Shown here: positions 7,978-47,838 of the stretch, one piece after another
How positions within the stretch are numbered: position 1 is the stretch's first letter
How the letters are laid out: the number at the start of each line of letters is the position of its first letter
From: a candidate division TM6 bacterium GW2011_GWF2_28_16
GTDB taxonomy: Bacteria; Patescibacteriota; Microgenomatia; UBA1400; PJMF01
Assembly (NCBI GenBank): GCA_001029715.1
Contig: CP011212.1
Coordinates: forward strand, 67,407 to 131,406
DNA: 64,000 bases
Direction of reading: 5' to 3'
Made by a program: the position numbers and the translations under genes
Notes under the pieces: generated by a model
Databases searched by the model: none
Told to the model about the DNA's origin: nothing
Seen by the model: only the letters and a program-made list of their open reading frames with translations

Positions 7978-8044
7978 AATTTTTTCCTTTTTAATTACTA
8001 AATTAATTTATTATAAATACGATTATATCAAGTTTAGTCAACTT

Positions 8045-8383: not shown

Positions 8384-8395
8384 ATTTTTTCGTTT

Positions 8396-9180: not shown

Positions 9181-9181
9181 A

Positions 9182-9649: not shown

Positions 9650-9679
9650 TTTATATTTTGATTATAAACCATTTATCTA

Positions 9680-21011: not shown

Positions 21012-21099
21012 AGCTTGTCTATTTTATAACTAAAAAATCCAGATTGCCATGTAAATTCTTTGCATGATTTTTTTTGTTTTTTACGACTATTAGAGTGTA

Positions 21100-24444: not shown

Positions 24445-24446
24445 AT

Positions 24447-24740
24447 ATGAATATAACGGAGTATTGGCGCTCAAACAAACAATGGTCTAAATATCTTGGC
24501 AAAAAAGCCAAGGTTTTAGCTGTTTCATTGATGGAAGTGGCGGCTTCAGATCAAACTGCGCTTTTGCCTTATTCTTATTTGCTCCTAGATTTAGAGAAAA
24601 GTAAAATTTCTTTGATGGGTGCTGCTCATCAAGAATTTAAAATTGGTGATGAGGTAGAAATTGTTTTGCGCAAAATTAAAAAAGAGGCTCAGGAAGAGAT
24701 AATCGTTTATGGTCTCAAAGCGGAAAAAATTTATGTCTAG
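24447..24740 (+). CDS. DUF35 OB-fold protein (scaffold of the thiolase/HMG-CoA synthase complex)
   Basis: 97-aa OB-fold-like ORF immediately after the thiolase, as in archaeal mevalonate operons. No Zn-ribbon cysteines. Confidence 0.55.
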   Translation: MNITEYWRSNKQWSKYLGKKAKVLAVSLMEVAASDQTALLPYSYLLLDLEKSKISLMGAAHQEFKIGDEVEIVLRKIKKEAQEEIIVYGLKAEKIYV

Positions 24741-25599: not shown

Positions 25600-26585
25600 A
25601 AAAAGTGAAGACTTCTGCCCCAGGAAAATTGATGCTTTTTGGTGAACATAGTGTGGTTTTTGGTCATCCTTGTATTGTGACTGCCGTTGATCGTCGTTTA
25701 TCAATTACTGTTGAGGAAAATGGCGAAGAAGTTTTTATTTTAGATGCGCCAGATTTGGGTTTACGAGCTTATTCTAAGCGAATTTGTGATCTTGGTAATA
25801 AAGATTTGCCAAAAGAAGTTAGCTTTATCGAAACTTGCTATAAGCTATTTTTGGAGAAATACCCACAACAAAAAACTATTCATGTTTATAGCAAGAATGA
25901 ATTCAAATCTTCTTATGGTCTTGGTTCAAGTAGTGCTAGCACAGTGGCTTTTGCTAAAGCTTTAAGTGAGTTTTATGAAGTGCCAATGAATAATGATCAG
26001 TTGTTCGATTTGGCTTATCAGACTGTTTTAGAAGTGCAGGGTGTGGCTTCTGGTTTTGACATTGCAGCTGCAATTTGGGGTGGAACGATTTATTACATCA
26101 CTCCTCATGGCAAACTTAGTAAACATAAAACTGTCGAACCAATCAAAATCAAAAACTTGCCTTTGTTAGTTGCCTATACTGGTATTAAAGCTGATACTGC
26201 CACCTTAATTCGAATGGTGCAAAATTTGCACAGTGAAAACAAAGGAACAGTTAATCACATTTTTACCGATATTACTCTTTTGGTAGAACAGGCTAAAAAG
26301 ACTCTTCAACAGCAAGACTGGCCACATCTTGGCTTATTAATGGATGAGAACCAAGCTTTACTACGTAAATTGCAAATTAGTAGCATTGAGCTAGAGAATC
26401 TCATCGCTGCTGGCAAAAGTGCCGGAGCAATGGGAGCCAAGCTCTCTGGAGCTGGAGGCGGTGATTGTATGTTAGCTTTAGTTGATGAAGCTGAGAAAAA
26501 AGCCGTTGCTCAAGAAATTACCAAGGCTGGTGGTAAAATTATTGAGGTGGAGATGAATGCGGAGGGCGTACGTTTGGAAAACTAA
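25596..26585 (+). CDS. mevalonate kinase-like GHMP kinase (paralogue 2; possible phosphomevalonate kinase substitute)
   Basis: APGKLMLFGEHSVVFG, YGLGSSSASTVAFAKAL and C-terminal KLSGAGGGDCMLAL (GHMP motif 3). Confidence 0.7.
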   Translation: MKKVKTSAPGKLMLFGEHSVVFGHPCIVTAVDRRLSITVEENGEEVFILDAPDLGLRAYSKRICDLGNKDLPKEVSFIETCYKLFLEKYPQQKTIHVYSKNEFKSSYGLGSSSASTVAFAKALSEFYEVPMNNDQLFDLAYQTVLEVQGVASGFDIAAAIWGGTIYYITPHGKLSKHKTVEPIKIKNLPLLVAYTGIKADTATLIRMVQNLHSENKGTVNHIFTDITLLVEQAKKTLQQQDWPHLGLLMDENQALLRKLQISSIELENLIAAGKSAGAMGAKLSGAGGGDCMLALVDEAEKKAVAQEITKAGGKIIEVEMNAEGVRLEN

Positions 26586-26694
26586 GTTTCGAGCCAGAGA
26601 TCGCTTGAATAAATACATTTTTTCACGCGCTCAAATGTCTCTAAACTTAGTTTTCCAAAACGTACTTTATTTAATTAAGCAAATTGAAAAAAAT

Positions 26695-27693
26695 ATGAAA
26701 AAAACAACGGTTCAAGCAGGTAGTGATATCGCTTTTGTTAAGTATTGGGGCAAAAAGGATAAAATCCTACGTTTACCAAGCAATGGTAGTATTTCCATGA
26801 TTTTAGATTCTTTGCAGAGCAAAACTACTGTCGAGTTTTTGCCAAATTTAGCTAAGGATGAGATCATAATAGGTGGCGAAGTTGAAGAGGGAGAGGCTTC
26901 TCGTGCCATTAAACATTTGGACAGAATTAGAACTTTAGCCAAAGAAAAAGGATTGATAGATAAAGATATTTTTGCTAAAGTCGTTTCGGAGAATAATTTT
27001 CCCAAGAGCACTGGTCTTTCTAGCTCTGGTTCTGGTTTTGCTGCTTTGACCATGGCTGCCACTAAGGCTATTGGTTTAGATCTTTCAGAAAAAGAATTGT
27101 CTATTTTAGCCAGGCAAGGATCTGGCTCTGCCTGTCGCTGTGTTTGTGGTGGTTTTGTTGAGTGGTTAGATGGTGAAACTTCTGAAGAATCTTATGCACA
27201 AAGCTTTGCTAAGTCAGAAGATTTTGATATTAGAGATTTAGTGGCGATTGTTTCAGAAGATAAAAAGAATTTAAGCTCAAGTGATGGACATGATTTAGCA
27301 GAAAGCAGTTTGTTTTTTAAGGCTCGTCAAGAAAAAATTGATACCAAGTTAGCAGCTGTCAAAAGAGCAATTTTACAAAAAGACTTTGAAACCCTAGGTG
27401 AAATAGTAGAAGCCGAGGCTTTAGAGTTTCACTCAATTTTATTAACCAGTCAGCCAACTATCTTGTTGTTTTATCCGGGAACGATTGAGGTGATGCAGGC
27501 TGTTCGTCAATTGCGTAAGACTGGTGTGCCAGTTTATTTCACTATTAATACCGGCTTCAATGTCCACATTTTGACTTTACCTCAATATGAGAAACAGGTA
27601 GCTGCTGTTTTGCAAAATTTACCAAGTGTGCAGAAAATTATTATCTCAGGAGCAGGTAATCAGCCAGAATATTTAGAAAAACATTTGTTTTAA
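26695..27693 (+). CDS. mvaD: diphosphomevalonate decarboxylase (or phosphomevalonate decarboxylase)
   Basis: SDIAFVKYWGKKD...LPSNGSISM N-terminal signature and GHMP fold. Start placed at the in-frame ATG 26695 (MKKTTVQAG) rather than the overlapping 26557 of the raw ORF. Confidence 0.8.
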   Translation: MKKTTVQAGSDIAFVKYWGKKDKILRLPSNGSISMILDSLQSKTTVEFLPNLAKDEIIIGGEVEEGEASRAIKHLDRIRTLAKEKGLIDKDIFAKVVSENNFPKSTGLSSSGSGFAALTMAATKAIGLDLSEKELSILARQGSGSACRCVCGGFVEWLDGETSEESYAQSFAKSEDFDIRDLVAIVSEDKKNLSSSDGHDLAESSLFFKARQEKIDTKLAAVKRAILQKDFETLGEIVEAEALEFHSILLTSQPTILLFYPGTIEVMQAVRQLRKTGVPVYFTINTGFNVHILTLPQYEKQVAAVLQNLPSVQKIIISGAGNQPEYLEKHLF

Positions 27694-28303: not shown

Positions 28304-29287
28304 TTATAGAAGTAGTAGCAAGAGTGCGCCAACGCCTAGGGCTCCAAGGCCAGCTTTAATGTAGTTCATCCAATCAGCTGGGCCACTTTCAGTAGGAACG
28401 TTGATTGGGCGCACGATGGTGGTTTCACCATTTGCTAATTTGCATTGACTATCTGTAGGATTGACGTCGAGGCGACATTGACCGCTGTAACAAATATGAC
28501 TAATGTTGCTACAGTCAGCATTGGCATTACAAGTTTCGTTGCAGCCAACAGTGGTAATAACGGTGGTAACAGATGGAGTTGGAGTGCTGGTAGCGGTCAC
28601 AGTAGTAGTTGGAGTTACGGTTGTAGTTACAGTAGTGGTTGGAGTAACAGTTGTAGTAACGGTTGGAGTAACAGTTACGGTTGCTTCACAACAAGTTGTG
28701 CTACTAGGATCGGCGACACATTCATCGAGATAATCTTCATCTGCACAGTATTTAACAATGTTTCCATCGCCATCAGTATCTGAAGTAGAAATACAAACAT
28801 AACCATCTTCGCAGTCATCGCTGTTGGTACAGTCTTTTTCACCACAAGAAAGCAAGTTTTCTTCTGGAGCGGTGCAACAAGAGTCAGTGTTTGGATCATC
28901 TATACAGGCTGTTTTATAATCTTCATCTGCACAATATTTATTGCCATTGTCGGCCTCAATACAAATTAAATTACTGCTACAGTCATCGTCACTTTCGCAA
29001 CCACTCAAACCACAGGTAATTTTATCTGGTTCTGTAACTGTAAATTCAAGAGTACAAGTTTGAGTTTTTTCAATATAAGCAGCTGGCTGAGATTGAGGGG
29101 CAGTTGGGGCGACTGGAGTAGTGTCTTGTTTTTGCGTAATTAAGAAAACACTAACTGCGCCACCAACAAAAATTAGTAGACCCAGCAACATAGCGATCAC
29201 TTTAAAATCGCCTTTTTTCTTCAGAGCAGTTTGTCCTTGCTTTGATTTTACGTAGGTCGCTGGTGTTTCAATTTGTTCTATGTTCAT
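28304..29287 (-). CDS. Cys-rich, Thr-repeat cell-surface protein with N-terminal signal anchor and C-terminal hydrophobic tail
   Basis: N-terminal TM helix. Two copies of a Cys-rich module (C..SGCESDDDCSSNLICIE...KYCADEDY..C..DP....CC). Thr/Val/Pro repeat TVTPTTTVTTTVTPTTTV. C-terminal GLGALGVGALLLLLL. Confidence 0.6.
   Translation of the reverse strand: MNIEQIETPATYVKSKQGQTALKKKGDFKVIAMLLGLLIFVGGAVSVFLITQKQDTTPVAPTAPQSQPAAYIEKTQTCTLEFTVTEPDKITCGLSGCESDDDCSSNLICIEADNGNKYCADEDYKTACIDDPNTDSCCTAPEENLLSCGEKDCTNSDDCEDGYVCISTSDTDGDGNIVKYCADEDYLDECVADPSSTTCCEATVTVTPTVTTTVTPTTTVTTTVTPTTTVTATSTPTPSVTTVITTVGCNETCNANADCSNISHICYSGQCRLDVNPTDSQCKLANGETTIVRPINVPTESGPADWMNYIKAGLGALGVGALLLLLL
28560..28685. 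repeat. imperfect tandem ~24-30-bp coding repeats (Thr/Val/Pro linker)
   Basis: Direct repeats GTTGGAGTAACAGTTGTAGTAACG / GTTGGAGTTACGGTTGTAGTTACAGTAGTG inside the minus-strand surface-protein gene. Confidence 0.6.
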
Positions 29288-29291
29288 TATT

Positions 29292-30683
29292 TTAATTCAC
29301 ATTATCTATCATTGTGCTTGGTGAATTATCCACCATTTCCCAAACTTGGCATTCCGTTCCCCAGCAAATACGACCCTGGACAACGTAATCTCCAAAGCTT
29401 GAAATGGTGTAGGAATCAGATACATTTTTAGCAATTGCGCCACTAGTGTCAGTTAGATCTATCCAAGAGCTCATGCCTGGAGCCCAGATTCTAAATTCAT
29501 AATTAAAGTCAACTCCTTGGTTGCCGACAGCAGTGCAACGGAAGCGCACCTCATCTCCGTCCTTGAGACTATCATCATCGTTTGCTTCCATAGTATTGTT
29601 ATTAGCATCTAGCATATCTATGCTGGCACAAACTGGCATAGCCTGGCTTTCACAACAATTGGCAGTGCTTGGATCAGCTGCGCAAAACAATTGATTTTCT
29701 CCTTTGGCACAAATACCAGTCGATTGAGAGTCGACTGTTACTGTTTGACAAGTAAGACCATTTTGACAGTCAGAATTTTGAGTACAACCAATCACTCCGC
29801 AGGCTAAAAGTTCTGGAGGTGTAGTAGGAGTTGGAGTAGGTGTTCTATTTGGAGGATTAGTTGGAGTAGGGGTTGGTGTGGCGCAATCTGAACAATCAGC
29901 TCCAGCATCACCGCATAAAGCATCACAACTTGAGGCACTGCCTATCACCCACCAGCCAGCGCTACATTGGCAACGCATTAAGCCAGATTCTTCACAGTTT
30001 TCGATTACTGAAGTATTTGGATTGTCGCACCAATCTCCGCCCATGGATTGTTCTGTGCACGGATCTTGATCGGTAACGTAACCGCACATGGTATCGCCAT
30101 TGGCGATTATTCTACAGGTAGTACTAACACATGGTCCACCAGCTACGAGTCTATGCAGATTTGGACCGCAGGCCGCCACAGTTGTGGTTGGAGTAACGGT
30201 CGAACCACCCGTGGGTGTACAGGCACCATCAATTACACGATAGCCAGTAATACATCTTCCACTAGTACCATTACAATATGGATCTCCTTCCATACACATC
30301 TCACTGGCTTGTTGGCGGTTGTCTTGATTTTGTCTGCTAAGTATATAACTAGAAAAAACCCCAACTACCAAGAAAAAAACTATAAGTAAGCCAGCCAATT
30401 TATTATTTGATTTCTTTTTCACTTGAAAAGATGGTTTTTGATCAGTTGAAAGTGGATTTTGAATAGAAACAGTTTCAGCACCTGACTTAACTGCCTCTTT
30501 GAGAGGTTCATTATCTGTAATTGTATTACCGCGATATTCTGGTATTTCTGGTTCTTTAGCAAGATCATTCCAAGGGGAATCAATTTTTTCTGGTTCTTTA
30601 ACAAAGTTATCGGAAGAATCCTCTGCCTTGTCTATCTGGCTTTTTTTATATTTAGCTGGTATAAAATCTCTAGGATTATTCAT
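29292..30683 (-). CDS. Cys-rich secreted/surface protein with PT-rich linker
   Basis: N-terminal signal anchor (LAGLLIVFFLVVGVFSSYIL), numerous Cys, PTPTPTNPPNRTPTPTPTTP linker. 463 aa. Confidence 0.6.
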   Translation of the reverse strand: MNNPRDFIPAKYKKSQIDKAEDSSDNFVKEPEKIDSPWNDLAKEPEIPEYRGNTITDNEPLKEAVKSGAETVSIQNPLSTDQKPSFQVKKKSNNKLAGLLIVFFLVVGVFSSYILSRQNQDNRQQASEMCMEGDPYCNGTSGRCITGYRVIDGACTPTGGSTVTPTTTVAACGPNLHRLVAGGPCVSTTCRIIANGDTMCGYVTDQDPCTEQSMGGDWCDNPNTSVIENCEESGLMRCQCSAGWWVIGSASSCDALCGDAGADCSDCATPTPTPTNPPNRTPTPTPTTPPELLACGVIGCTQNSDCQNGLTCQTVTVDSQSTGICAKGENQLFCAADPSTANCCESQAMPVCASIDMLDANNNTMEANDDDSLKDGDEVRFRCTAVGNQGVDFNYEFRIWAPGMSSWIDLTDTSGAIAKNVSDSYTISSFGDYVVQGRICWGTECQVWEMVDNSPSTMIDNVN

Positions 30684-30787: not shown

Positions 30788-31588
30788 ATGAAATTTTTAA
30801 AATTAAATACAAAACAAAGATATTGGCTAGATTTTATTCTTGTGATGACGCAAAAGGAGATAAAGGCAAGGTATAAGAGAACTTTTTTAGGTCTTTTGTG
30901 GGTAATTTTTAATCCATTCTTGCAGATGCTAATAATTGGTTTGATTTTTCAATTTTTTGTTCCTATGCAAATTGAGAATTATTTTCTTTATCTTTTTGCT
31001 GGTCTTTTACCTTGGAATTTCTTTTCAATGGCGCTTTTGCGCGCGACACCTCTTTTAGTGCAGGAAAGATCTTTGATTCAAAAAGCTGCTTTTCCTAGAG
31101 AATTAATGGTTGTGGCAGTGGTCATGGCAAATTTATTTCATACTTTAGTGGCTAGTTCAGTATTTTTGCTATTTTTAGCTTTTCTAAAGACGAGTTTTTT
31201 TGCTGGTGTCCTATTTTTTATATCTAGCTTTTTCTTAATCTTTTTAATACTTATCTTTTTATTATTTTTTACTTTGGCGACTTGTTTAGTTATTTCTGCA
31301 TTATATGTAAAGATAAGAGATTTAATTTTCATTATCCAACTTTCAATTCAATTGCTATTTTATGCTGTGCCAGTTATCTATAGTCTAGAGATGTTACCGG
31401 AATTTTTTAGAAATCTACTTTATCTAAATCCATTGGTTAGCTATATTGAGGTTTTTAGAGCGGCTGCTTTAAATAGTGTTTTCAATTATAAAATGGCAAT
31501 TTATGCCGGTCTTTTTTCCATTTTTTTTCTATTTTTTGCTCTGCAATTTTTTCGAAAAGAAAGCAAAAATTTTGATGATTGGTTTTAA
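30788..31588 (+). CDS. ABC-2 type transporter permease (Wzm/TagG-like)
   Basis: N-terminal KEIKARYKRTFLGLLWVIFNPFLQMLIIGLIF motif and six TM helices. Translationally coupled to the following ATPase. Confidence 0.85.
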   Translation: MKFLKLNTKQRYWLDFILVMTQKEIKARYKRTFLGLLWVIFNPFLQMLIIGLIFQFFVPMQIENYFLYLFAGLLPWNFFSMALLRATPLLVQERSLIQKAAFPRELMVVAVVMANLFHTLVASSVFLLFLAFLKTSFFAGVLFFISSFFLIFLILIFLLFFTLATCLVISALYVKIRDLIFIIQLSIQLLFYAVPVIYSLEMLPEFFRNLLYLNPLVSYIEVFRAAALNSVFNYKMAIYAGLFSIFFLFFALQFFRKESKNFDDWF

Positions 31589-32649
31589 ATTTTAAAATGA
31601 AAAACAGTAAAAATAAAAAAATAGCTATAAATATAGAAAACGCTAGTAAACGCTATTTCTTGCGATCTGCAAAAGCTAAGAAAAAAGAAACTTTTTTTGC
31701 CTTAAAAGATATAAATATAAAAATATTTAAGGGAGAAAAAGTAGCTATTCTTGGTGACAATGGGGCTGGCAAGACTACTTTGCTCAAAGTAATGACTGGA
31801 ATAGCAGAACCAACTTGTGGGAAAGTGAATAGTATTGGTAAGCTTGTTTCCTTAATTGATATCACGGCTGGTTTTCATCCTGAGTTTTCAGGTCGTGAAA
31901 ATATTTATTTCAATGGCATTCTTTTAGGAATGAATCTTTCTTCAATTAAAAAATTAGAGCAAGAAATAATTAATTTTTCAGGTATAGAAAAATTTATAGA
32001 TCAAGCTCTTTATACCTATTCTTCAGGTATGGTTTTGCGGCTTGGTTTTTCTATTGCTATTCACAGCGATCCAGATATTTTAATTTTGGATGAGGAGGTG
32101 GTGGTGGGAGATCAGGATTTTCAGAAAAAGGCCTATGATGAAATTGAGAAGATTTTTGCTGAAGGTAAAACCATTGTTGTTTGTAGTCATGTTTTACCTT
32201 TACTGAGTAGACTTTGTGAGCGCTTCATCTGGCTAGATAAAGGCAAAGTAAAAATGGATGGAGGTAAAGAGGTTGTTATTGAATATAAAAAGAATCGAAG
32301 TAAATTGGATATAGAAAAAATTGGCAAGATTAAAAATGAAAAAAAATTTTTTCAATTTCTGCAATCTTTGCCAATCGGAGAGAGGTTTATTGTAGAAGCA
32401 GTCAGTGGCAGTATGGAGCCACTTATCTTAAAGGGCGATGAGGTAAGAGTTGAAAGGTGTTCACTTAAAAATATAAGAGTTGGCAACATAATTGCTTATT
32501 GGAGCGATGAATTTAAAAATATCATTGTTCATAGAATTTATAAGAAAAGCTCTAAGGGGATTTTCTTGACTAGAGGAGATAGTAACTATATTGTAGATGA
32601 GATGCCAGTCACAGAAGATATTTTTTTAGGTAAAGTTATTAATTTTTAA
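31579..32649 (+). CDS. ABC transporter ATP-binding protein (Wzt/TagH-like) with C-terminal Sec11/SipW-type signal-peptidase-like domain
   Basis: Walker A GDNGAGKTTLLK, signature YSSGMVLRLGF, Walker B ILILDEEVVVGD. C-terminal ~100 aa carry EAVSGSMEPLILKGDEV, IVHRIYK and LTRGDSNYIVDE, the three boxes of Sec11/SPC18/SipW (S26B) peptidases. Confidence 0.8.
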   Translation: MVLNFKMKNSKNKKIAINIENASKRYFLRSAKAKKKETFFALKDINIKIFKGEKVAILGDNGAGKTTLLKVMTGIAEPTCGKVNSIGKLVSLIDITAGFHPEFSGRENIYFNGILLGMNLSSIKKLEQEIINFSGIEKFIDQALYTYSSGMVLRLGFSIAIHSDPDILILDEEVVVGDQDFQKKAYDEIEKIFAEGKTIVVCSHVLPLLSRLCERFIWLDKGKVKMDGGKEVVIEYKKNRSKLDIEKIGKIKNEKKFFQFLQSLPIGERFIVEAVSGSMEPLILKGDEVRVERCSLKNIRVGNIIAYWSDEFKNIIVHRIYKKSSKGIFLTRGDSNYIVDEMPVTEDIFLGKVINF

Positions 32650-32934
32650 ATGAGGATAAATATGAAAATATTATATATTCGAGACAATGATCTTTATTTT
32701 AAGGAGGAAGACGGCAAAATATTGGTTTTAAAAAAGAACAAAAAAGAAATTGTGGAATTAAATGAGGTTGGCTCTTTGATTTGGAAAGCTTTGAAGACGA
32801 AGAAGTCTATTGATGCTTTGGTGAAAAAAATAAATTCAGCTTTTGAGGGGGCAGATTCTAAGGAGGTAAAAAAAGATGTTGAGGAGTTTATTCTCAAGTG
32901 TTTAAAAGATTCAATAATAGAAAAAATAAATTAG
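32650..32934 (+). CDS. PqqD-like protein (RiPP recognition element family)
   Basis: 94 aa. Pattern LYF.EEDGKILVL....EIVELNEVGSLIWKAL.TKKSIDALVKKINSAF....KEVKKDVEEFILKCLKDSII follows the PqqD/PF05402 consensus. Confidence 0.65.
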   Translation: MRINMKILYIRDNDLYFKEEDGKILVLKKNKKEIVELNEVGSLIWKALKTKKSIDALVKKINSAFEGADSKEVKKDVEEFILKCLKDSIIEKIN

Positions 32935-32938
32935 AGTT

Positions 32939-33922
32939 ATGAAAAAAATTAGCAGACAAGAGTTTGATTATTTAATTAAAAAAAGAAAGCTTGAAGATCC
33001 AAAGAAAATTAAAGCTTTTGAAAAAATACTAAAAGATGAGCGCGGTTATGTTTTCAAAATGCCTAAAAGAGGTTCGAATGTTATTTTAATGGCTTCTGGT
33101 GGACTTGATTCAATGGTTGTTTGGGGAATTTTAATGAAAGAATATGGCTTGAATGTTTATCCGATTACTTTTGACAGAGGTGAAAAAAAAAGAAACAGGG
33201 AATTTGCTGCTTTTAAATATTTTGATAAATTTTATCAGAAAAAATTTCCTAAAAATTATAGAAAATTTTTAGATTTAGACGTAGGACAAGATCAGATTTC
33301 AATAAAAATTGAAGACGGTGTCAAAGATCTACGAGAAGAAACATTATTAAATAATTTTAGAGATGACTTAATGTTTTTTAACCCCTCTTTAGGTGTTTTT
33401 ACTATCTTGCCACTTTTTGCACGTAGTTATGCCATGTATCTAAATGCAATTAAAGGTCTAAAAATTAATACTATTTTTTGTGCCGTCACAGCCAATGATG
33501 GGGAATTAATTGCTCATCAAACCTTAACTTCATTGAGGTCTATTATGTGCAACATGTGTGTTTCAATCAAAGATTATTCTTGGCAGTTTTTGTCAATTTG
33601 TTTAGAGCCAGAAATTAATTCTTTTATAAAGAAATCAGATCTTGTTAAGTGGGGAGAAGATAATAGTTTACCACTAGAAAAATCTTGGAGTTGTTACCAT
33701 GCGAAAAAGTATCAATGTGGTGGAGATAACTGTATTGCTTGTGAAGCGAGAAGAAAAGCATATTTAGAGGCAAAAATAGAAGATAGAACTATTTATAAAA
33801 GCCTTGCAGATCAGGAGATCCTAATTAAAAAAGCGAAAAAAACTTTAAGAAAGTATCTTTCTAGAACAAAAAAGAACTTAATAAACACAGTTAAACGTTT
33901 TTTTGAAGATACGATAAGATAG
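32939..33922 (+). CDS. QueC-family PP-loop ATPase (7-cyano-7-deazaguanine synthase-like) with N-terminal extension
   Basis: PP-loop ILMASGGLDSMVV. ITFDRGEKKRNRE (cf. QueC VTFDYGQRHRAE). C-terminal Zn motif SCYHAKKYQCGGDNCIACEARRKAY (QueC SCY..x..CGxCxxCxxR). ~45 extra N-terminal residues. Confidence 0.7.
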   Translation: MKKISRQEFDYLIKKRKLEDPKKIKAFEKILKDERGYVFKMPKRGSNVILMASGGLDSMVVWGILMKEYGLNVYPITFDRGEKKRNREFAAFKYFDKFYQKKFPKNYRKFLDLDVGQDQISIKIEDGVKDLREETLLNNFRDDLMFFNPSLGVFTILPLFARSYAMYLNAIKGLKINTIFCAVTANDGELIAHQTLTSLRSIMCNMCVSIKDYSWQFLSICLEPEINSFIKKSDLVKWGEDNSLPLEKSWSCYHAKKYQCGGDNCIACEARRKAYLEAKIEDRTIYKSLADQEILIKKAKKTLRKYLSRTKKNLINTVKRFFEDTIR

Positions 33923-34067
33923 AACTATCAAGGGGAAATCTAAGAATGCTGTTTAGAACTAAATTTATTCAGCTACTACTAAGATAGCTTTTAGATCAAT
34001 AATTCTAAGTTGAGGTTTTTTATATTTTTGCATTGTAATTTAATGTTAGATAATTTTTAAGTTGTTG

Positions 34068-34784
34068 TCAACGATTAGATTGCTTTTGAATTATGCCCAG
34101 TCCAGAGCCTAAATAATTTACTTCAATCTTATTTTTGTTTGTTTTTTCTTCCCAAAGTTTCCAGACTCCGTATTTTCCTTCTGGCAAAGTTTCTTTTATA
34201 GAAATATCGTGCAGAAGCATAAGACCTCCTTCATGGAGCATCGGCCAGAAGAGTTTAAAATCTGTTTTTATTCCTTCATAGGAATGGTCTCCGTCTATAT
34301 AGATATATTCATAGCTCATGTTTTTATATTTTTTGGCAAATTTTTGCGTAGTTGTTACAAATAGTTGGATATTATTTTCTAAGCCAAAATTTTTGAAATG
34401 ATCTTTGCCTTCTTGAGTTTTCCAAAAACCTTTTCCGGTCCATGAGCTTTTACCTTCTTTTTTTATTTCATCGCCAAATCCCGCATCAACAAAGTCGACT
34501 TTGCCAAAACCATTGTCATGACAAGCTTGAGCTAGAACAGCTGGTATATATCCATATCGGGATCCAATGCAAAGAATTTTCTTTGCTTTTATTTGTCTGA
34601 GTAGGCCATAGTGAATCCAACCATATCCTAGGTCAGCATTTTTGATATTGGATTCGTGTCCAAATTCATCTGCTTCAAAAAAATTCATTAATTCGGTAAT
34701 TCTTAAATCATTGGAGAGCTTTTTACTTTTTTCTTGCTGATGGAATATTAAATATTTTAAGATTTTTGTTTTGATTCCAAACAT
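34068..34784 (-). CDS. class I SAM-dependent O-methyltransferase (TylF/MycF/CmcI-like)
   Basis: YIDGDHSYEGIKTDFKLFWPMLHEGGLMLLHDI motif typical of Methyltransf_24-type sugar/macrolide O-MTs. 238 aa. Confidence 0.6.
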   Translation of the reverse strand: MFGIKTKILKYLIFHQQEKSKKLSNDLRITELMNFFEADEFGHESNIKNADLGYGWIHYGLLRQIKAKKILCIGSRYGYIPAVLAQACHDNGFGKVDFVDAGFGDEIKKEGKSSWTGKGFWKTQEGKDHFKNFGLENNIQLFVTTTQKFAKKYKNMSYEYIYIDGDHSYEGIKTDFKLFWPMLHEGGLMLLHDISIKETLPEGKYGVWKLWEEKTNKNKIEVNYLGSGLGIIQKQSNR

Positions 34785-34789
34785 AGGTT

Positions 34790-35917
34790 TTAATTCTTTA
34801 AAATTTCGCTAATTTTTTTAATTTTATTATACCAACTATTTTCAATGGCTAATTGTCTAGCCTCTTTTCCATTTTTTTCAATCCAGCTATTTTTTTCAAT
34901 TGTTTCTATATGCTTTTTCCATTCTTGAGCATTTTTTCCTATTTTAATGAATTTTTTGAATTTATTATCAGTTAGTTCTTTTATTTCTGTAGAAATTATT
35001 GGTTTTTCAAAATAAAGATACTCAAAAGTTTTCATTGGATAGCAATTAGCATTAAATGGATAACTGACGTCATAGGGTATTATGCAGAGGTCAAATTGAG
35101 ATATTAATTGAGGAATTTTATCTTTTTTTTGAGATTCAATTTTTTTTACATTGGAGAAAGATAAAAATTTTTTAATTCGTTTTCTTTTATTTTCTTTTAT
35201 TTTTAAGTCTCTTTTAATTGGTCCAATAAAAGTGAAATTAGTTTCTGGCATTAACTTGACTAAATTTATCATTAGATCGTAGTCAATGCGGTCGCTTATG
35301 GCTCCAATAAAACCAACGTTTATTTTCTTCTTCTTTGAGAATTTTATGGGCGATTTTTCAAACATTTGCAAATCAAAGCCCTGAGACACTAAATGAAGCT
35401 TTTTTTTATTATATTTTGCCACTTCTTTTTTTAGGGTCTTTGAATTAACAAAAATATAGTTTGCTTTATCTAAATTTGTTTTATATTTTTTGAAATCAAA
35501 CCAATCAACTATATCTAAGATCAGCTCTCTTTTTTTCAAGTTATGCTTTTCTATTTCCACTGTAAGATCAAAGATCCACTCATATGTTTTTTTATTTATC
35601 GATAGAAAGAAAATAATAAACTCAGTAATAAAATAATTAATTTTGTTATTTAGTTTTGAAAATAAATCTTTTGTAAAGAGAAATTTAATTTTCTTTGGAA
35701 AAAAGTAAAAATATTTATAATAAAAAATGTCATTTTTTTTACTTAATAAAAAGAATTCTTGTTGAAAAAGCTTTTTCCAACTCAAGGAGAAATTTTTTTC
35801 AATAACTAAGACTTTATTATTATTTTGTGTTAAGATCCGAATAGTTTGTAATATGAAATCGCAAATTTCTTGAGGATTTTCATGAGTGGGAACAATAATA
35901 AAACTATTTCTAAGCAT
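34790..35917 (-). CDS. putative glycosyltransferase (GT-B, GT4-like C-terminal domain)
   Basis: C-terminal half (INVGFIGAISDRIDYDLMINLV...FIGP..) resembles the Glycos_transf_1 domain. N-terminal half is divergent. Confidence 0.4.
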   Translation of the reverse strand: MLRNSFIIVPTHENPQEICDFILQTIRILTQNNNKVLVIEKNFSLSWKKLFQQEFFLLSKKNDIFYYKYFYFFPKKIKFLFTKDLFSKLNNKINYFITEFIIFFLSINKKTYEWIFDLTVEIEKHNLKKRELILDIVDWFDFKKYKTNLDKANYIFVNSKTLKKEVAKYNKKKLHLVSQGFDLQMFEKSPIKFSKKKKINVGFIGAISDRIDYDLMINLVKLMPETNFTFIGPIKRDLKIKENKRKRIKKFLSFSNVKKIESQKKDKIPQLISQFDLCIIPYDVSYPFNANCYPMKTFEYLYFEKPIISTEIKELTDNKFKKFIKIGKNAQEWKKHIETIEKNSWIEKNGKEARQLAIENSWYNKIKKISEILKN

Positions 35918-37435
35918 CGACTATATATTAGCAAAGTTTTTGATTTATTTTTTATCAAAAAAAATGCTTTTTCTAAACAAGAAAAAATTTCTATACTTAT
36001 ATCTATTTTGTTTTTAGTTTCAGTTTTCTTCATTCCAAACAATAAATTTTTATTCATGGTTACTGCAACTTACATACTTTCTTTATTTATCGTGAACAAG
36101 TCAATTTATGAAACCGTCTTTTATGCTTTTTTACCACTGAGTTTAGTTTTAGTTGGTCAAGGTTATTCTTATATTGCTATTCCTGGTGAAGCAATAAAAT
36201 CAGAGGGCTATGAAGAGGGAAAAATTTTAAATTATTTTTTTTCTCCATTTATTGTTTTGTTGATTTTAATTAGTTTTTTATTTTTTGTTAATTTAACTCA
36301 AAAACTTTTTAGAAAAAAATCTTTTATTAAATTTAAGCCATTTATTATTTCTTTTTTATTCTTTTTTCTTTTTTCTTTTTTTTCTGCAATTAGCAATGAT
36401 TCTTTTCCAAAATTGTCCTTTCTTTACTTTTTAAATGATTTTCTATTTTTTATTTCTTGTTTTTTTATTGCGCTGTTTATTTCAGATAGCAAGGAAAAAA
36501 CAAATAAAATGAATTTGATTCTATTAAATTTGATAATTTTATCTGTTTTTTTAGGGATGGTTGTGATTTTTCAATTTATAAACAAATCACCCTTAGGAAT
36601 AATAGCTGAAATGAGCCACGAAGTCCCATTTTTTGGAGGTGGAGCAGATGAAGACAGTTCTTTATTTAGACCGATAGGAATTTTTACTCACGCTAATATT
36701 CTGGCTAACTATTTAAGCAATTTATTTTTTTCTATATTTTTATTGAAAGCTTATTTAATAGAAAAAAAAGAATTACTCATTAATAAAAAGTTTATCAATA
36801 TTGGATTGCTTCTCATTTTTATTTCTATATTCTCAACTCTCTCAAGAGCAGTTTATTTAGCTTTGTTTTTATCAGCATTGATTTATGTGTTTATTTTTAG
36901 AAAAGAAATATCCGCAAGCGGTAAGAAAATAGTTAAAAAAATATTGAAAGTTAAATATTTAATTTTTCTTTTACCTTTGATGTGGAATGTAGCTGTAAGA
37001 ATAATTTACAGTTTCAATAGCTTTTATCAAGAGGGAGGGGTTGGAGTTCGGGAAAAACTAACTATAGAGAGCTTAGCTCTTTTAAGAAGAAATTTTTTTT
37101 ATGGAGTGGGAACTGGCATGTTTATCCCATCTTTGTTTAGGGAAAATCCCATTGGAATCATAAGCGAATTTCCGGAGTCAGTTCATAATGGTATTTTATT
37201 AAATTTAATTGAAAATGGGTTTCTTTCTTTTTTCTTCTTTTTGATGGTTTATTTTTTATTTTTCAAAGCTTTAATAGCTTTAAAAGCTAATAAGAAAATC
37301 ATCGTAATTTCTTTTCTAGCAATTTTTTCCCAATTAGTAATAAGTTTCTTTCATCCATTCACAAACACCGTTACTCTATATACTTTTATTATGATTTTGA
37401 TAATATATGATCTATATGCAATTGAAAAAAAATAA
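35870..37435 (+). CDS. O-antigen polymerase/ligase family membrane protein (Wzy_C-like)
   Basis: ~12 TM helices and a periplasmic loop with HNGILLNLIENGFLSFFFF (Wzy_C H....E.G motif). The true start may be an internal Met. Confidence 0.55.
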   Translation: MRIFMSGNNNKTISKHRLYISKVFDLFFIKKNAFSKQEKISILISILFLVSVFFIPNNKFLFMVTATYILSLFIVNKSIYETVFYAFLPLSLVLVGQGYSYIAIPGEAIKSEGYEEGKILNYFFSPFIVLLILISFLFFVNLTQKLFRKKSFIKFKPFIISFLFFFLFSFFSAISNDSFPKLSFLYFLNDFLFFISCFFIALFISDSKEKTNKMNLILLNLIILSVFLGMVVIFQFINKSPLGIIAEMSHEVPFFGGGADEDSSLFRPIGIFTHANILANYLSNLFFSIFLLKAYLIEKKELLINKKFINIGLLLIFISIFSTLSRAVYLALFLSALIYVFIFRKEISASGKKIVKKILKVKYLIFLLPLMWNVAVRIIYSFNSFYQEGGVGVREKLTIESLALLRRNFFYGVGTGMFIPSLFRENPIGIISEFPESVHNGILLNLIENGFLSFFFFLMVYFLFFKALIALKANKKIIVISFLAIFSQLVISFFHPFTNTVTLYTFIMILIIYDLYAIEKK

Positions 37436-38294
37436 AATTTTAAAGTGGCTAAAGTCTTTTGACAAGATAGATATTATTGGCATTGTTTTCTTTTTTTTGA
37501 TTCTATTTAGTTCTGCATTATTTCTTTTAAGAAGGTCTGAATATGTGTACATTACCATAAGAGTTACCAAAGAAGACAGCCTTCATAATCAATGGTGGGT
37601 TCAGCCGTCTAATTGGTATTTGAAAAATTTAACTGATGGCCTGGAAGATAAAGACCTAATGGGGAAAGTTAATGCGAGATTAGAAAATATGTATTTTTAT
37701 CCAAGAAATGAATCGGTTCAAGATATATTTATAGTTTTAAAATTAGAGGCAACATACAATAAGAGATCAAATCAATATTCATATAAGGGCTTACCTCTTT
37801 TAATGGGCAGCTATCAAAAAATTGAACTAGGAGGAAATTCAATAAGAGGAATGGTTCAAGATCTTAGCTTAGACCCTCCGGTTAGAAAGATGAAATCTTT
37901 TAGGGTTAAAGTCGAGTTAGAGGCTGAAAATAATAGATCTGCTTTTACCAATGCAAATATCGAATATCGTGGAATTGATAATTTTTTGGCAGATCCGATC
38001 AAAGTAGGACTAGTTTCTTATGACAGCGAAAAAGAAGAAATTGTTAAAGTAATTGATGTAAAAAAATCTCCTTCTTATAAAATTTTTATTTCTCCTTTGA
38101 CCAATAAATTAGTCAGTGCCTATGATCCAGATAGACAAAAAGTAGAAATGGAGATGATAGTTAAGCAAGCTGAGGTTTTTGATGGCACTTATTTATACAG
38201 AGAAGATTTGGTAATTGCTTTGGGAGAGGTAATTCCTCTTTATTTTGATTCTCTAACCTTAAACGCAACTGTCACAGGTATAGAGGAGCTCTAG
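37407..38294 (+). CDS. hypothetical membrane-anchored protein
   Basis: N-terminal TM helix plus a ~250-aa soluble domain of unknown function. Confidence 0.35.
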   Translation: MIYMQLKKNKILKWLKSFDKIDIIGIVFFFLILFSSALFLLRRSEYVYITIRVTKEDSLHNQWWVQPSNWYLKNLTDGLEDKDLMGKVNARLENMYFYPRNESVQDIFIVLKLEATYNKRSNQYSYKGLPLLMGSYQKIELGGNSIRGMVQDLSLDPPVRKMKSFRVKVELEAENNRSAFTNANIEYRGIDNFLADPIKVGLVSYDSEKEEIVKVIDVKKSPSYKIFISPLTNKLVSAYDPDRQKVEMEMIVKQAEVFDGTYLYREDLVIALGEVIPLYFDSLTLNATVTGIEEL

Positions 38295-38301
38295 AGTTTT
38301 T

Positions 38302-39828
38302 TTATTGGCAATTCCATTTTTCTATTGTTTGTAGCTCGTGCTCCAAAAAACAATTTTCATTTAAAATTTTTCGAACTTCTTCTTTGTTTTTTAAATTATC
38401 TTGATATTCTTTTTCTAGATAAAGTTTTTTTGATTTCAATAGGCTCTCTAAACTACTGAGATTGTTGAGATAAATTCTATTGGTAACTTCGCTATTTTTA
38501 TTTTCATTAGACTTAATATATGTTGAATCATTTTCCATAGTATTAATGCTTAGAGTGTCTAGAAGAATACTTTCTGGAAAATATAAACTTAGCTCATTTC
38601 TTTCTTTGGTGAGATATTCAATTTTTTCTAATCTTTGTTTTGAATAAATACTTTTTAAGTTTGATAAGTTTTGAGGAATCCAAATAATAAACATCAGGAG
38701 AATTATCAAAAAAATATTGTTTTTTTTGATAAATATTTTTTTCACATAAAAAACAAAAAATATGATGTAAAGAATATGCGCTCTTGGAATCAAAACTGAT
38801 ACGTTTGGAAAAATTGTTCCAATTTTATAAATAGATGACAATATTGGAGATAGCAATGAGTAGCTCAAGGTAATTATAAATGGAGTGCTTACTAGCAACG
38901 CTATTTCTTTATTTTTTTTGAGGGTTTTGCTTTTTATGATTTTGGAAGTTATAAAAATTGTTATTAATATGAATATTAAAATTGTTAAAAATTTATTTTT
39001 AAAAATATTAATTCCAATGTTTTCTAAATAAAAACTGCTCAAATTTAAAAGAGTGGGCTTTTTTATCCAATCAATATTATTAAACTGCTGATAATTTTTA
39101 TAAGCACTGATAAGTAAAAATTCAAAAAAATAAATAAGTAGAAAACTTAGATATTGGATTATCTTTTTATTTTTATATAGTAGATAAGAAATTAATGTGA
39201 CCGCTAATACTATAAAACTATAGTCAACATAAATTCCCAGAACTGTTGATAAAATTAGCAAGAATAATGTTTTTTTATTTTTATTATTTAGATAGAGGTC
39301 AAATAAGATAATACTGGTACTACCAATAAAAATTAATAAGCTATACATTCTCAGTTGCCATGATTGTTGAATTATAAGAGGATGAAAACTTATTAAAGTC
39401 GCAAGCAAAACAGCAGAAAAAAAGTCTTTTCTAGTTTTTAATTTATAAAAAGATAAAAATATTATTGCTAGAACTTGAAAAACTAGAGAAGATAAAATTC
39501 TTAAAAATGTTAAATCTCTAGTAAAGAAAAGCAAAAATTTTAGATACAAATAATATCCCCCAGGATGTACATCCTGATTGAAATTAATAGCCATTTCTTT
39601 GAAATTGTATCTTTGAGTAAAAAACAAGGAATATTTTTCATCCAGCCACAGCGGTTGTGTTTTGATCGTGTATAATTTGATTATTATTCCAGACAGAATT
39701 ATAAGAAAAAGAATTATCTTTTCCTTTTTCTGAGGAATGCTATTTATATAAGTTTTAATAGATTTAAGTTTCATGGATAAAAAAGTTTCAGTAGTCATTG
39801 TAACAAAAAATAGACAGAATGATCTCAC
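38302..39828 (-). CDS. putative GT-C type membrane glycosyltransferase (ArnT/PMT-like)
   Basis: ~11 TM helices. First extracytoplasmic loop has QPLWLDEKYSLFF (DE motif). C-terminal coiled-coil soluble domain. Confidence 0.4.
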   Translation of the reverse strand: MRSFCLFFVTMTTETFLSMKLKSIKTYINSIPQKKEKIILFLIILSGIIIKLYTIKTQPLWLDEKYSLFFTQRYNFKEMAINFNQDVHPGGYYLYLKFLLFFTRDLTFLRILSSLVFQVLAIIFLSFYKLKTRKDFFSAVLLATLISFHPLIIQQSWQLRMYSLLIFIGSTSIILFDLYLNNKNKKTLFLLILSTVLGIYVDYSFIVLAVTLISYLLYKNKKIIQYLSFLLIYFFEFLLISAYKNYQQFNNIDWIKKPTLLNLSSFYLENIGINIFKNKFLTILIFILITIFITSKIIKSKTLKKNKEIALLVSTPFIITLSYSLLSPILSSIYKIGTIFPNVSVLIPRAHILYIIFFVFYVKKIFIKKNNIFLIILLMFIIWIPQNLSNLKSIYSKQRLEKIEYLTKERNELSLYFPESILLDTLSINTMENDSTYIKSNENKNSEVTNRIYLNNLSSLESLLKSKKLYLEKEYQDNLKNKEEVRKILNENCFLEHELQTIEKWNCQ

Positions 39829-40678
39829 TCATTGCCTCGGTTCACTCCTATCTCAATCCATTGTTTTAGACCAGTTGATTTTAATCGATAATAACTCAAC
39901 TGATAAAACAAAAGAAATTTTCTCTAACTTTGCTAAGAATAGCCAGATACCATGTAAATATGTTTTAGAAAAAAGAAAAGGATATCCTACCGTCTACAAT
40001 CGAGGTTTAAAAGAAGCTAAAAACACTTGGGTGGCATTTATTGATGATGATTGCGTAGCAGATGTTGATTGGTACATGAATATTAAAAAAAGAGTAAATA
40101 AAGAACGCGATGTTAATTTAGCTGCTATTCTTGGTTTTTCAGACACTTATTATCAAACAGATATTTTTTCTTTAGCCACCAATTTCTTTGATTTAATCTG
40201 GAAAAAATCAGGAAGCATTGGAGGAAAAGTAAGAGATTTCGAAATCCTTGATAACAAAAACATTGTTTACAATAAAAACTTTTTAATTAAAAACAAGTTA
40301 AGCTTTGATGAATCTAGAGTAAGGTTTTTCAATGGAGCTAGTGAAGATTGTGATTTAGGTAGACAAATATTTGAAACTAAAAAAGCTGTGGCTATTTATG
40401 ATAGATCAATCAAAATTTGGCATAAAGATCCGGTGAATTTTTCTTGGTTTGTAAAAAAATATTTATCTTCCATTAGTGCTTACTCTTATTATCTAAGTAA
40501 GTGGGGAAATGAATCCCACAATTTAGTTAAAAATAAAATTAACTTTAAAAAAGAACTCATTCTTTTTATTAAGCACCACAGAATTAAATCTTTTAAAAAA
40601 ATAGCTTTATATATTTTGATATATTTTCATGTGGTGCTAGATTATTTCTTTCTCTTGTTTTATAAATCTAAACACTGA
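39773..40678 (+). CDS. glycosyltransferase family 2 (copy A)
   Basis: VSVVIVTKNRQNDL..., IDNNSTDKT and FIDDDCV (DxD) motifs. N-terminal ~95 aa and a central 42-aa block are identical to copy B at 41844. Confidence 0.8.
   Translation: MDKKVSVVIVTKNRQNDLTHCLGSLLSQSIVLDQLILIDNNSTDKTKEIFSNFAKNSQIPCKYVLEKRKGYPTVYNRGLKEAKNTWVAFIDDDCVADVDWYMNIKKRVNKERDVNLAAILGFSDTYYQTDIFSLATNFFDLIWKKSGSIGGKVRDFEILDNKNIVYNKNFLIKNKLSFDESRVRFFNGASEDCDLGRQIFETKKAVAIYDRSIKIWHKDPVNFSWFVKKYLSSISAYSYYLSKWGNESHNLVKNKINFKKELILFIKHHRIKSFKKIALYILIYFHVVLDYFFLLFYKSKH
39818..40361. repeat. segmental duplication copy A (two identical blocks, ~257 bp and ~127 bp) shared with 41883-42429
   Basis: Blocks 39818-40074 and 40235-40361 are nucleotide-identical to 41883-42139 and 42303-42429 respectively. 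Confidence 0.8.
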
Positions 40679-40680
40679 TT

Positions 40681-41841: not shown

Positions 41842-41843
41842 TT

Positions 41844-47835: not shown

Positions 47836-47838
47836 CTT

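Follow-up and report, generated by a model that had tools for sequence, protein, structure and literature searches.

The stretch of DNA analysed here, referred to as the window, comprises 64,000 nucleotides (64 kb) of contig CP011212.1 from the candidate division TM6 bacterium GW2011_GWF2_28_16 (assembly GCA_001029715.1, positions 67,407 to 131,406 of the forward strand), and our subject is a pair of genes within it that encode a QueC-like enzyme and a PqqD-like protein. The two are the last genes of a tight operon of four on the forward strand, in which an ABC-2 type permease (30788-31588), an ATP-binding cassette (ABC) ATPase (31579-32649), the PqqD-like protein (32650-32934) and the QueC-like enzyme (32939-33922) are joined by a 10-nt overlap, a direct abutment and a 4-nt gap. 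Behind the QueC-like gene lies a gap of 145 nt that holds a gene of only 22 codons on the reverse strand (33965-34033), and beyond this gap follows a methyltransferase gene, also on the reverse strand (34068-34784). A preliminary description, made from the letters of this DNA alone, had reported the QueC-like/PqqD pair, and our analysis confirms it. We put 59 open reading frames (ORFs) of the window through Pfam, and for comparison we read 33 loci holding a member of the same QueC-like family (designated by L numbers below), which were gathered through exact-protein look-ups and through genome and metagenome scans.

The QueC-like protein, 327 aa in length, is a QueC-fold PP-loop ATP-pyrophosphatase. 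It matched the Pfam model PF06508 in two stretches with 53.6 bits (cutoff 22), and against the QueC equivalog model TIGR00364 of NCBIfam it reached 35.3 bits, where the cutoff is 150.3. The QueC hallmarks SGGLDS, ITFDRGEKKRNRE and WSCYHAKKYQCGGDNCIACEARR, which the preliminary description had named, were all found in the protein. When residue conservation was counted across 23 diverse family members, S53, G54, G55 and D57 of the PP-loop S53-G-G-L-D-S58 proved invariant. The zinc cysteines C252, C260, C265 and C268 are likewise invariant in the family alignment, with a spacing of C-x7-C-x4-C-x2-C in the window protein and C-x7-C-x2-C-x2-C in most relatives, and K232 corresponds to the conserved lysine of canonical QueC.

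The mutationally validated signature of canonical QueC consists of SGGxDS, YxQxHxxE, VPxRN, YPDC and C(x)8CxxCxxC, and Y35 (YxQxHxxE), R99 (VPxRN) and Y131 (YPDC) of the E. coli enzyme are essential (PMC13329287). We aligned the family with six canonical QueC sequences and found YxQxHxxE, VPxRN and YPDC missing, in line with the earlier statement that a clear GRN/CETDFSGYPDC block is lacking. At the place of YxQxHxxE the window protein has the segment FDRGEKKRNRE, which is unconserved across the family; VPxRN has no counterpart, its region being occupied by a longer, variable insertion of low model confidence; and instead of YPDC the family carries a conserved motif of its own, D187-G188-x5-Q-T-L-T-S-L-R200. 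The roughly 45 extra N-terminal residues noticed earlier are real and are a hallmark of the family, with E19, R35, G36 and P42 invariant or nearly so in the 23 members. They form two helices packed on the core with a predicted local distance difference test (pLDDT) score above 90 in the AlphaFold model, whose overall pLDDT is 87. A sequence search of the PDB with the protein gave no match, and in a fold comparison the model came closest to QueC (2pg3 and 3bl5), Cap9 (9nto), YcfA and ArtA, a nitrile synthetase, with identities of 14-23%.

Since the protein scores 35 rather than 150 bits and has lost three motifs while keeping the PP-loop and the zinc Cys4 site, it is on the sequence evidence not a canonical QueC and not a queuosine enzyme. 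With these motifs gone, it is also very unlikely to be the sole queC of a genome with a full preQ0 pathway. The 59 ORFs of the window gave no Pfam match to the queD, queE, folE, tgt or queF families, which bears out the earlier remark that queuosine genes are absent from the window, and no que genes were present in eight related neighbourhoods for which Pfam tables were available. The QatC model NF041925 gave 19 bits (cutoff 280) and the PADLOC QatC model an E value of 0.0098; QatA, QatB, QatD, CD-NTase and Cap10 partners are lacking among the window ORFs, and a PADLOC scan showed no defence-system signature. A profile search with E<=1e-30 collected 251 representative clusters of the family, which fall into length classes of about 290-340 aa and about 400-450 aa. 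Relatives are annotated in public records as 7-cyano-7-deazaguanine synthase.

The immediate partner (94 aa) belongs to the PqqD family of RiPP recognition elements (RREs; RiPP, a peptide made by the ribosome and modified after translation), which act as peptide chaperones. Its Pfam match to PF05402 has an E value of 1.2e-11 and 45.2 bits (cutoff 23.4), and NCBIfam gave weak matches to the lasso and pyrroloquinoline quinone (PQQ) PqqD models. A PqqD protein, discrete or fused, is present in 25 of the 33 loci, several of those without a PqqD call being short fragments, and the pairing with the QueC-like enzyme is therefore not a chance adjacency. PqqD co-varies with the clade of the QueC-like enzyme and with the mini-peptide gene described below.

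A further link is seen in six relatives (L016, L018, L019, L050, L051 and P0029), in which the QueC-like enzyme carries a C-terminal PqqD domain in one chain; for L018 both domains of the single chain were confirmed by Pfam. Directly beside the enzymes of this fusion subfamily lie precursors of 41-54 aa that begin with the same KYxxP motif as the 22-codon gene of the window. The loci further contain a stand-alone S26 peptidase, an additional discrete PqqD, an NTP_transf_5 gene (PF14907) fused to a second S26-like domain, a P-loop protein weakly similar to HprK/ScmC, radical SAM-SPASM genes and sometimes YcaO together with a dehydrogenase, and no ABC-2 exporter is found near the fusion-subfamily enzymes. 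Such loci are clearly gene clusters for peptide maturation. Their longer type of precursor (Y..P...[KR][RE][IM]xL[FY]) does not occur in the window.

Additional peptides with a YxxP leader and Gly/Ser/Cys-rich cores were noticed on the reverse strand of L018 (6478-7059), L051 (2935-3042) and L046 (336-533). The L018 peptide runs on into a Hint-like domain (193 aa in all; PF13403, weak) and adjoins a YcaO cyclodehydratase and a nitroreductase-type dehydrogenase, a gene pair of which L019 holds a similar copy.

The gene in the 145-nt gap of the window encodes the 22-residue peptide MQKYKKPQLRIIDLKAILVVAE, a candidate precursor or scaffold peptide. It had been missed in the preliminary description and was found by reading the gap directly. 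Clustering of small ORFs across the loci had a floor of 30 aa and yielded only PqqD and shadow ORFs; peptides of 20-28 aa could be seen only by direct reading of the intergenic gaps, and NCBIfam has no model for them. Mini-ORFs of 20-28 codons with the start M-K-K-Y-x-x-P adjoin the QueC-like or the PqqD gene in every locus of the main subfamily, to which the window belongs. With the longer precursors of the fusion subfamily included, KYxxP mini-genes accompany PqqD in 25 of 25 PqqD-bearing loci and are present in none of the four loci without PqqD (L003, L004, L005 and L047); PqqD, peptide and S26 peptidase are present or absent together.

We aligned 20 main-subfamily peptides and 5 longer ones on the tyrosine. 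The conserved block runs from Y-3 to Y+15, with the tyrosine and the proline in 20/20, lysine at Y-1 in 19/20, lysine at Y+11 in 17/20 and leucine at Y+14 in 17/20 of the main-subfamily peptides, and the tyrosine and proline of YxxP recur in the 5 longer peptides. Besides the lysine at Y+11, those at Y+6 and Y+7 also show high conservation. Variability is confined to the last 1-5 residues, within which the final residue is better conserved inside each clade than the preceding ones. A final E is shared by the window, L039, L010, L001a and L043, whose place is taken by S or T for L008, L012 and L040-42 and by K for L001b and L006. None of the acidic positions is conserved throughout, and the peptides of L008, L012 and L045 contain neither Asp nor Glu.

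Several features support expression of the peptide genes. Strong Shine-Dalgarno sites precede the ATG in L002, L007, L008, L012, L042 and L045, and of the 11 nucleotide differences between the window and L039 peptide ORFs, 6 are at the third position of a codon. Upstream of the window ATG, at a distance of about 9 nt, a site (34043-34071, reverse strand; TTGACA-17 nt-TAACAT) agrees with the promoter consensus at 10 of 12 positions and may serve as the promoter of the peptide gene; given this short distance, the predicted transcript would be nearly leaderless. The hexamers TTGACA and TA(A/G)CAT are conserved at matching positions in five loci (the window, L039, L010, L001 and L009), and in L011, L007, L016, L018, L019, L048 and L050 the ATG is preceded by a TTGAC hexamer at a distance of 33-57 nt. 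Finally, L001 (7703-12487) contains two complete triads of QueC-like enzyme, PqqD and peptide, of different subtypes, which flank one ABC-2 exporter with one fused peptidase domain; each triad has its own peptide, and its subtype matches the triads of other loci.

Other small ORFs were considered and set aside. Those upstream in L003 were taken for shadow ORFs, the near-identical L004 having an opposite-strand GH39 gene there; one after the QueC-like gene of L004 is a radical-SAM fragment; and a 43-aa ORF of L005 lacks YxxP. Just upstream of the peptide gene of L040 (6992-7056), and likewise in L041 and L042, sequence without a start codon could be translated as ...ALKVVLVET up to a stop codon, and it may represent a remnant of the precursor gene or another copy of it.

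The two first genes of the operon encode an exporter. The permease (PF01061, E 1.5e-15) is Wzm/TagG-like, with Wzm/RfbD and KpsM as its best NCBIfam matches, both below the equivalog cutoffs, and it co-occurs with the cassette in most loci. The ATPase (PF00005, E 7.6e-20) is of the Wzt/TagH type and scored E values of 1.1e-50 against Wzt/RfbE and 3e-49 against TagH, again below the equivalog cutoffs. An alternative ATG start at 31597 is suggested by P0177, a 100% identical protein of 350 aa. The C-terminal part of the ATPase (residues ~258-356; 32350-32649, forward strand) is an S26B-type peptidase domain, which passed the archaeal-type signal peptidase I model TIGR02228 with 69.3 bits (cutoff 51.85) and matched PF00717 with an E value of 2e-4; this domain occupies the place of a glycan- or wall-binding C-terminal domain, of which the ATPase has none. 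In the earlier description the pair had been coupled to a peptidase-ABC exporter. The link to a peptidase holds, and the classical bacteriocin-type identity, that of a peptidase-containing ATP-binding cassette transporter (PCAT) with a C39 domain, was rejected in favour of a Wzt/TagH-type ABC-2 exporter whose ATPase ends in an S26-type domain.

The motifs SxSMxP (Ser278), (V/I)HR (His318) and GD(N/S)...D are kept in all ABC-fused and stand-alone copies of the peptidase, and the domain looks like an active enzyme as far as its sequence tells. In the AlphaFold model of the ATPase, a linker helix follows the nucleotide-binding domain and leads to an all-beta C-terminal domain; as no membrane helix is present, the peptidase domain should face the cytoplasm. 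By analogy with a system discussed below, we propose that it is an RRE-dependent leader peptidase. The fusion of ATPase and peptidase is limited to about 30 clusters, and the nearest other ATPase relatives are TagH-like (teichoic-acid) or short polysaccharide/polyol-phosphate export ATPases. L045 and L048 have the peptidase as a separate gene beside the peptide and PqqD genes and next to a short ABC ATPase, an arrangement that shows domain fusion and fission.

Where the flank suffices, the partners of the QueC-like gene are PqqD, the ABC-2 permease, an ABC ATPase of ~340 aa and a SAM-dependent methyltransferase of the Methyltransf_24 family (PF13578, E 5e-18 for the window gene at 34068-34784), which adjoins the QueC-like gene in most loci with enough flank. 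About half of the loci contain a pyridoxal phosphate (PLP)-dependent decarboxylase of either the group II or the ornithine/arginine/diaminopimelate type. The cassette always lies among glycosyltransferase, Wzy_C, Bac_transf, WecG and sugar aminotransferase genes, and the corresponding glycan locus of the window spans about 30.8 to 50.1 kb.

We consider it probable that the locus is a ribosomal-peptide maturation cassette of CPR (candidate phyla radiation) bacteria, in which the QueC-like enzyme modifies a small peptide rather than taking part in queuosine synthesis. The link between the enzyme and the peptide is strong, since PqqD is confirmed, co-occurrence stands at 25/25 against 0/4, the triads of L001 are matched and the enzyme is fused to PqqD in several relatives. 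The preliminary description had suggested that a QueC paralogue was re-targeted through an RRE, and this idea gains support from the lost motifs, the sub-cutoff score, the genomic context, the PqqD fusions and the YxxP mini-gene.

QueC itself converts a carboxylate to an amide and then to a nitrile. The computations establish the domain identities, the YxxP peptide gene, the conservation of catalytic residues and the patterns of co-occurrence and fusion. Beyond these, the reaction, modification site, cleavage position and order of steps that we infer for the cassette are as follows. The 22-residue peptide MQKYKKPQLRIIDLKAILVVAE would be made from its own promoter, and its N-terminal KYxxP block would be bound by PqqD, which would present the peptide to the QueC-like enzyme. 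This enzyme, with a rebuilt substrate site but with the ATP-binding PP-loop and the zinc site retained, would convert a peptide carboxylate through an acyl-adenylate into a nitrile or an amide, which might be substituted. Ammonia or some other amine would act as the nucleophile, and in many of the related loci this amine is probably supplied by the neighbouring PLP-dependent decarboxylase. The product might then be tailored by the adjoining methyltransferase, and the S26B domain on the exporter ATPase would remove a leader of 19 residues, probably after Y+15, which would leave the three-residue core VAE in the window and cores of 1-5 residues in relatives. Export would be performed by the ABC-2 transporter.

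As to which carboxylate would be modified, the C-terminal alpha-carboxylate is favoured, because it is the sole carboxylate present in every peptide (those of L008, L012 and L045 having no Asp or Glu), because variability is confined to the extreme C-terminus while the last residue is conserved within clades, and because Asn-synthetase-like analogues modify their peptides there. Judging from how frequently a decarboxylase is a partner, a biogenic amine would often serve as the nucleophile, and one may speculate that the two interchangeable decarboxylase families fit a diamine precursor. The cores given above follow from applying a 16-residue ruler, known from another system, to the main-subfamily peptides; five loci would have S or T alone as the core. 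Applied to the fusion-subfamily peptides, the same ruler places the start of the core at a lysine in L018 and L019 and one residue after a lysine in L016.

Several points weigh against the peptide-maturation interpretation. We infer the reaction, the modification site and the nucleophile, and the window itself has no decarboxylase. The putative cleavage site, V-L-A or I-L-V at -3 to -1, depends on a ruler borrowed from another system, and single-residue cores would be unusual for a peptide natural product. L003/L004, L005 and L047 keep the QueC-like gene without PqqD, S26 peptidase or peptide, and L003-L005 also retain the methyltransferase, decarboxylase and ABC-2 genes in the absence of the peptide triad, so the enzyme may have a peptide-independent substrate. 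The glycan-locus setting is constant and the exporter is of a glycopolymer type, which a sugar-directed role would fit equally well.

The last two points lead to the main rival, in which the enzyme is a glycan-tailoring amidoligase or amidotransferase comparable to the PP-loop sugar amidotransferases WbpG/WbuX that places ammonia or a decarboxylase-derived amine on a carboxylate of a sugar or lipid-linked glycan exported by the Wzt/TagH-type transporter, with the peptide, PqqD and peptidase as a separate or regulatory add-on. We regard it as rather unlikely. It is consistent with the invariable glycan context, with an ATPase closest to Wzt/TagH, with the L003-L005 loci just mentioned and with the sugar amidotransferases known in the PF06508 superfamily (PMC13329287, cluster 5). 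It is at odds with the single-chain fusions of the QueC-like enzyme and PqqD, with the co-occurrence of YxxP peptides in 25/25 loci with matched subtypes, and with the fusion-subfamily loci, which have no ABC-2 exporter and look like peptide gene clusters; moreover, the Cys motif is C-terminal as in QueC, an arrangement unlike that of WbpG.

A hybrid of the two would explain both the peptide and the glycan contexts. Here the mini-peptide would be an aminoacyl or peptidyl donor and an export tag, and the QueC-like enzyme would ligate its C-terminus to an amine on a lipid-linked glycan or its terminal cap, an amine that could belong to an amino sugar or derive from the decarboxylase. PqqD would deliver the conjugate to the exporter, where the S26 domain, which sits where Wzt normally has a cap-recognising domain, would cut off the 19-residue leader during export and leave 1-5 ribosomally encoded residues on the glycan. 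We hold this scheme to be unlikely.

More doubtful still is a reaction of reversed polarity like that of QatC/Cap9, in which a small-molecule carboxylate (7-carboxy-7-deazaguanine or another) is adenylated and moved to a peptide amine, which would belong either to the N-terminus that S26 cleavage creates or to one of the conserved lysines. Acylation of protein N-termini by QueC-family enzymes is established (PMC13329287; 10.1101/2025.04.06.647259), Cap9 is among the best fold matches of our protein, which also has weak QatC matches, and the peptides show strong conservation of their lysines at Y+6, Y+7 and Y+11. Those lysines, however, sit in the leader block that is probably read by PqqD and the peptidase, whereas the variable but clade-conserved parts of the peptides are at the C-terminus. 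In addition, the window has no QatA, QatB, QatD, CD-NTase or Cap10 partner, no defence-island context and no deazaguanine pathway genes, and NF041925 stays at 19 bits where 280 are called for.

It is highly improbable that the enzyme is a lasso-like or other macrolactam cyclase, which after leader removal would link the side chain of an Asp or Glu to the new N-terminus or to a lysine. The parts do match lasso logic (RRE, leader peptidase and a PP-loop adenylating enzyme), and in the longer fusion-subfamily peptides a conserved Lys stands at what is predicted to be position +1, with an acidic residue 4-7 positions later, but the predicted cores in the window subfamily have 1-5 residues, several of them without an acidic one, and the enzyme is not of the Asn-synthetase type. 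That it is an ordinary QueC making preQ0 for queuosine or archaeosine is scarcely credible, for the passed Pfam QueC model and the annotation of relatives as 7-cyano-7-deazaguanine synthase are outweighed by the lack of three validated catalytic motifs (PMC13329287), a score far below the TIGR00364 cutoff, the absence of que genes from the window and the related neighbourhoods read, the conserved extra N-terminal domain and the peptide partners.

The peptide-maturation interpretation can be compared with several known systems, among them the linear polyphosphorylated peptide (LPP) clusters of Bacillota. Experiments have shown that LppS, their archaeal-type signal peptidase (Ser29, His68, Asp93), depends on presentation of the leader by the RRE LppB for cleaving it; the leader, YxxPxVLxHQxIxFET, is cut 16 residues after the tyrosine, and the clusters are embedded in capsule loci (PMC13381572). 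[Y/W]xxP is moreover the leader motif read by discrete RREs (PMC13381572). The window likewise has an archaeal-type signal peptidase with a Ser/His/Asp centre, a discrete RRE, a leader starting with YxxP, a conserved block of 16 residues (Y to Y+15) and a polysaccharide-locus setting. An NTP_transf_5 protein (PF14907) and a weakly HprK-like P-loop protein are shared by the fusion-subfamily loci only; the window contains no HprK-like kinase, no PF14907 NTP transferase and no MsbA-type transporter. Its peptidase is a domain of a Wzt/TagH-type ATPase, its leader differs beyond YxxP, and its cassette has a QueC-like enzyme, a kind of protein that the LPP paper does not mention (PMC13381572).

For the chemistry, the nearest comparisons are FzmA/FzmZ and PesC/PesA, the latter of the nitrilobacillins. 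FzmA, a PP-loop enzyme of the Asn-synthetase-like kind that bears an RRE fused to its C-terminus, converts the C-terminal carboxylate of a 22-mer YxxP peptide into a hydrazide or amide; in fosfazinomycin biosynthesis a methyltransferase acts after FzmA, and removal of the leader then gives a small molecule (PMC13622209). PesC, also Asn-synthetase-like, turns a peptide C-terminus into a nitrile, and its authors compare it with QueC/ToyM (PMC13060819). Common to these systems and ours are an enzyme of the PP-loop ATP-pyrophosphatase superfamily together with an RRE, discrete or C-terminally fused, a leader that is (in ours, putatively) removed and a very small product; pairs of nucleotidyltransferase and discrete RRE occur in the fusion-subfamily loci. 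The FzmA precursor resembles ours in its length (21/22 residues), its N-terminal YxxP, its being missed by standard gene callers and its adjoining methyltransferase. In contrast to FzmA and PesC, the window enzyme has the QueC fold (PF06508) with a zinc Cys4 site instead of the Asn-synthetase fold and lacks a glutaminase domain. Our system further differs in its CPR hosts, its glycan locus, its S26-type leader peptidase fused to an ABC-2 exporter, and the PLP-dependent decarboxylase that often stands beside the QueC-like enzyme.

With canonical QueC and ToyM the protein shares the fold, the SGGxDS PP-loop, the C-terminal zinc Cys4 knuckle and the conserved lysine, and it would be expected to turn a carboxylate into an amide or nitrile in the same ATP-dependent manner. 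It differs in the loss of YxQxHxxE, VPxRN and YPDC, in three added parts (the two-helix N-terminal extension, an insertion inside the chain and a long helix at the C-terminus), and in having a peptide partner instead of a que context. In QatC and Cap9, too, a QueC-fold enzyme has been turned from a small-molecule substrate to a polypeptide, QatC also having a remodelled active site and terminal extensions; the window has neither their defence partners nor the QatC motifs, and its proposed target is an RRE-presented 22-mer with the proposed polarity opposite, the peptide giving the carboxylate.

A PqqD-type RRE and a YxxP-like N-terminal motif of a short peptide also link the cassette to the lasso B1/B2/C and PqqA/PqqD systems, in which a protease and a PP-loop enzyme then follow. 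PqqA has only about 23 residues. Missing from the window are a B2 cysteine protease, an Asn-synthetase-like cyclase and the radical SAM enzyme PqqE, and its predicted cores are too short for a lasso fold. The permease and nucleotide-binding domain belong with Wzm/Wzt and TagG/TagH (E about 1e-50), whose ATPases also have an extra C-terminal domain; in the window, however, this domain is an S26B peptidase with intact catalytic motifs rather than a carbohydrate- or wall-binding one, and the scores stay below all equivalog cutoffs.

The overall logic of such a cassette is thus known, and what is new is the QueC fold in this role, the peptidase-exporter fusion and the link to glycan export. We found no connection between QueC and an RRE in the searchable literature. 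The LPP, FzmA and PesC papers, the QueC family survey (PMC13329287) and the RRE-Finder papers make no mention of a QueC-family enzyme in a peptide role, and the window family is not in that 2026 survey (PMC13329287). A CPR-centred QueC-fold family in an RRE-dependent peptide pathway is previously undescribed. If our interpretation is true, this would be the first QueC-family enzyme in ribosomal-peptide maturation and a fourth branch of the QueC fold beside preQ0 synthesis, protein deazaguanylation and cofactor/sugar chemistry. PP-loop chemistry on the C-terminus of tiny YxxP peptides, recognised only in 2026 and for Asn-synthetase-like enzymes, would then have arisen twice, from two PP-loop folds. 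CPR bacteria have small genomes that are thought to encode little secondary metabolism. In them the cassette is coupled to an exporter of cell-envelope glycans, by way of a peptidase fusion of a previously undescribed type. Genes of 20-28 codons escape ordinary annotation, so that present records mislabel the family, whose sequence clusters number at least 251, as 7-cyano-7-deazaguanine synthase.

Two proteins encoded directly upstream of the cassette (28304-29287 and 29292-30683, both on the reverse strand) were also noticed. They are Cys-rich, Thr/Pro-rich and membrane-anchored, have no Pfam match and are syntenic with the cassette in L001, L005, L006, L010, L014 and L015. Their conserved N-terminal motifs, MNNPRDFIPAKYKK and TPATYVKSKQ, resemble the KYKKP of the peptide without its proline, and the 327-aa one ends in a conserved hydrophobic tail, SGPADWMNYIKAGLGALGVGALLLLLL, that is sorting-signal-like. 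Despite the N-terminal PAKYKK, we rejected these proteins as the primary substrate: they lack the YxxP proline, are kept in the PqqD-less L005 and are absent from many loci.

Another set of genes recurs by the cassette in related loci, namely a 3-deoxy-D-arabino-heptulosonate 7-phosphate (DAHP)-synthase-like, a dehydroquinate-synthase-like, a dehydroquinase and an AMP-binding gene (L005 1-3663, L006 8529-12260 and L001 16679-16969). It is not present in the window, and its composition hints at a shikimate-derived acid made in the same locus as the cassette.

Elsewhere in the window, a complete mevalonate block (19300-27693) comprises HMG-CoA reductase, an HMG-CoA synthase-like and a thiolase-like protein, two GHMP kinases and diphosphomevalonate decarboxylase; a polyprenyl synthase lies beside it, an undecaprenyl-diphosphate synthase is encoded at 6432-7109, and the block is syntenic with the cassette in L001. 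Seven tandem paralogues of 112-155 aa, all of the type IV secretion pilin family PF18895, occupy 7136-10099 on the reverse strand. The G+C content is 26-30% over 34000-50000 and 33-42% in the flanks, a pattern typical of variable, possibly exchanged surface-polysaccharide regions. Within this region, the glycosyltransferase-2 genes at 39773-40678 and 41844-42746 share 300 nt at 95% identity (39782-40081/41847-42146) and 148 nt at 97% identity (40234-40381/42302-42449), repeats that indicate a recent duplication or gene conversion within the glycan locus.

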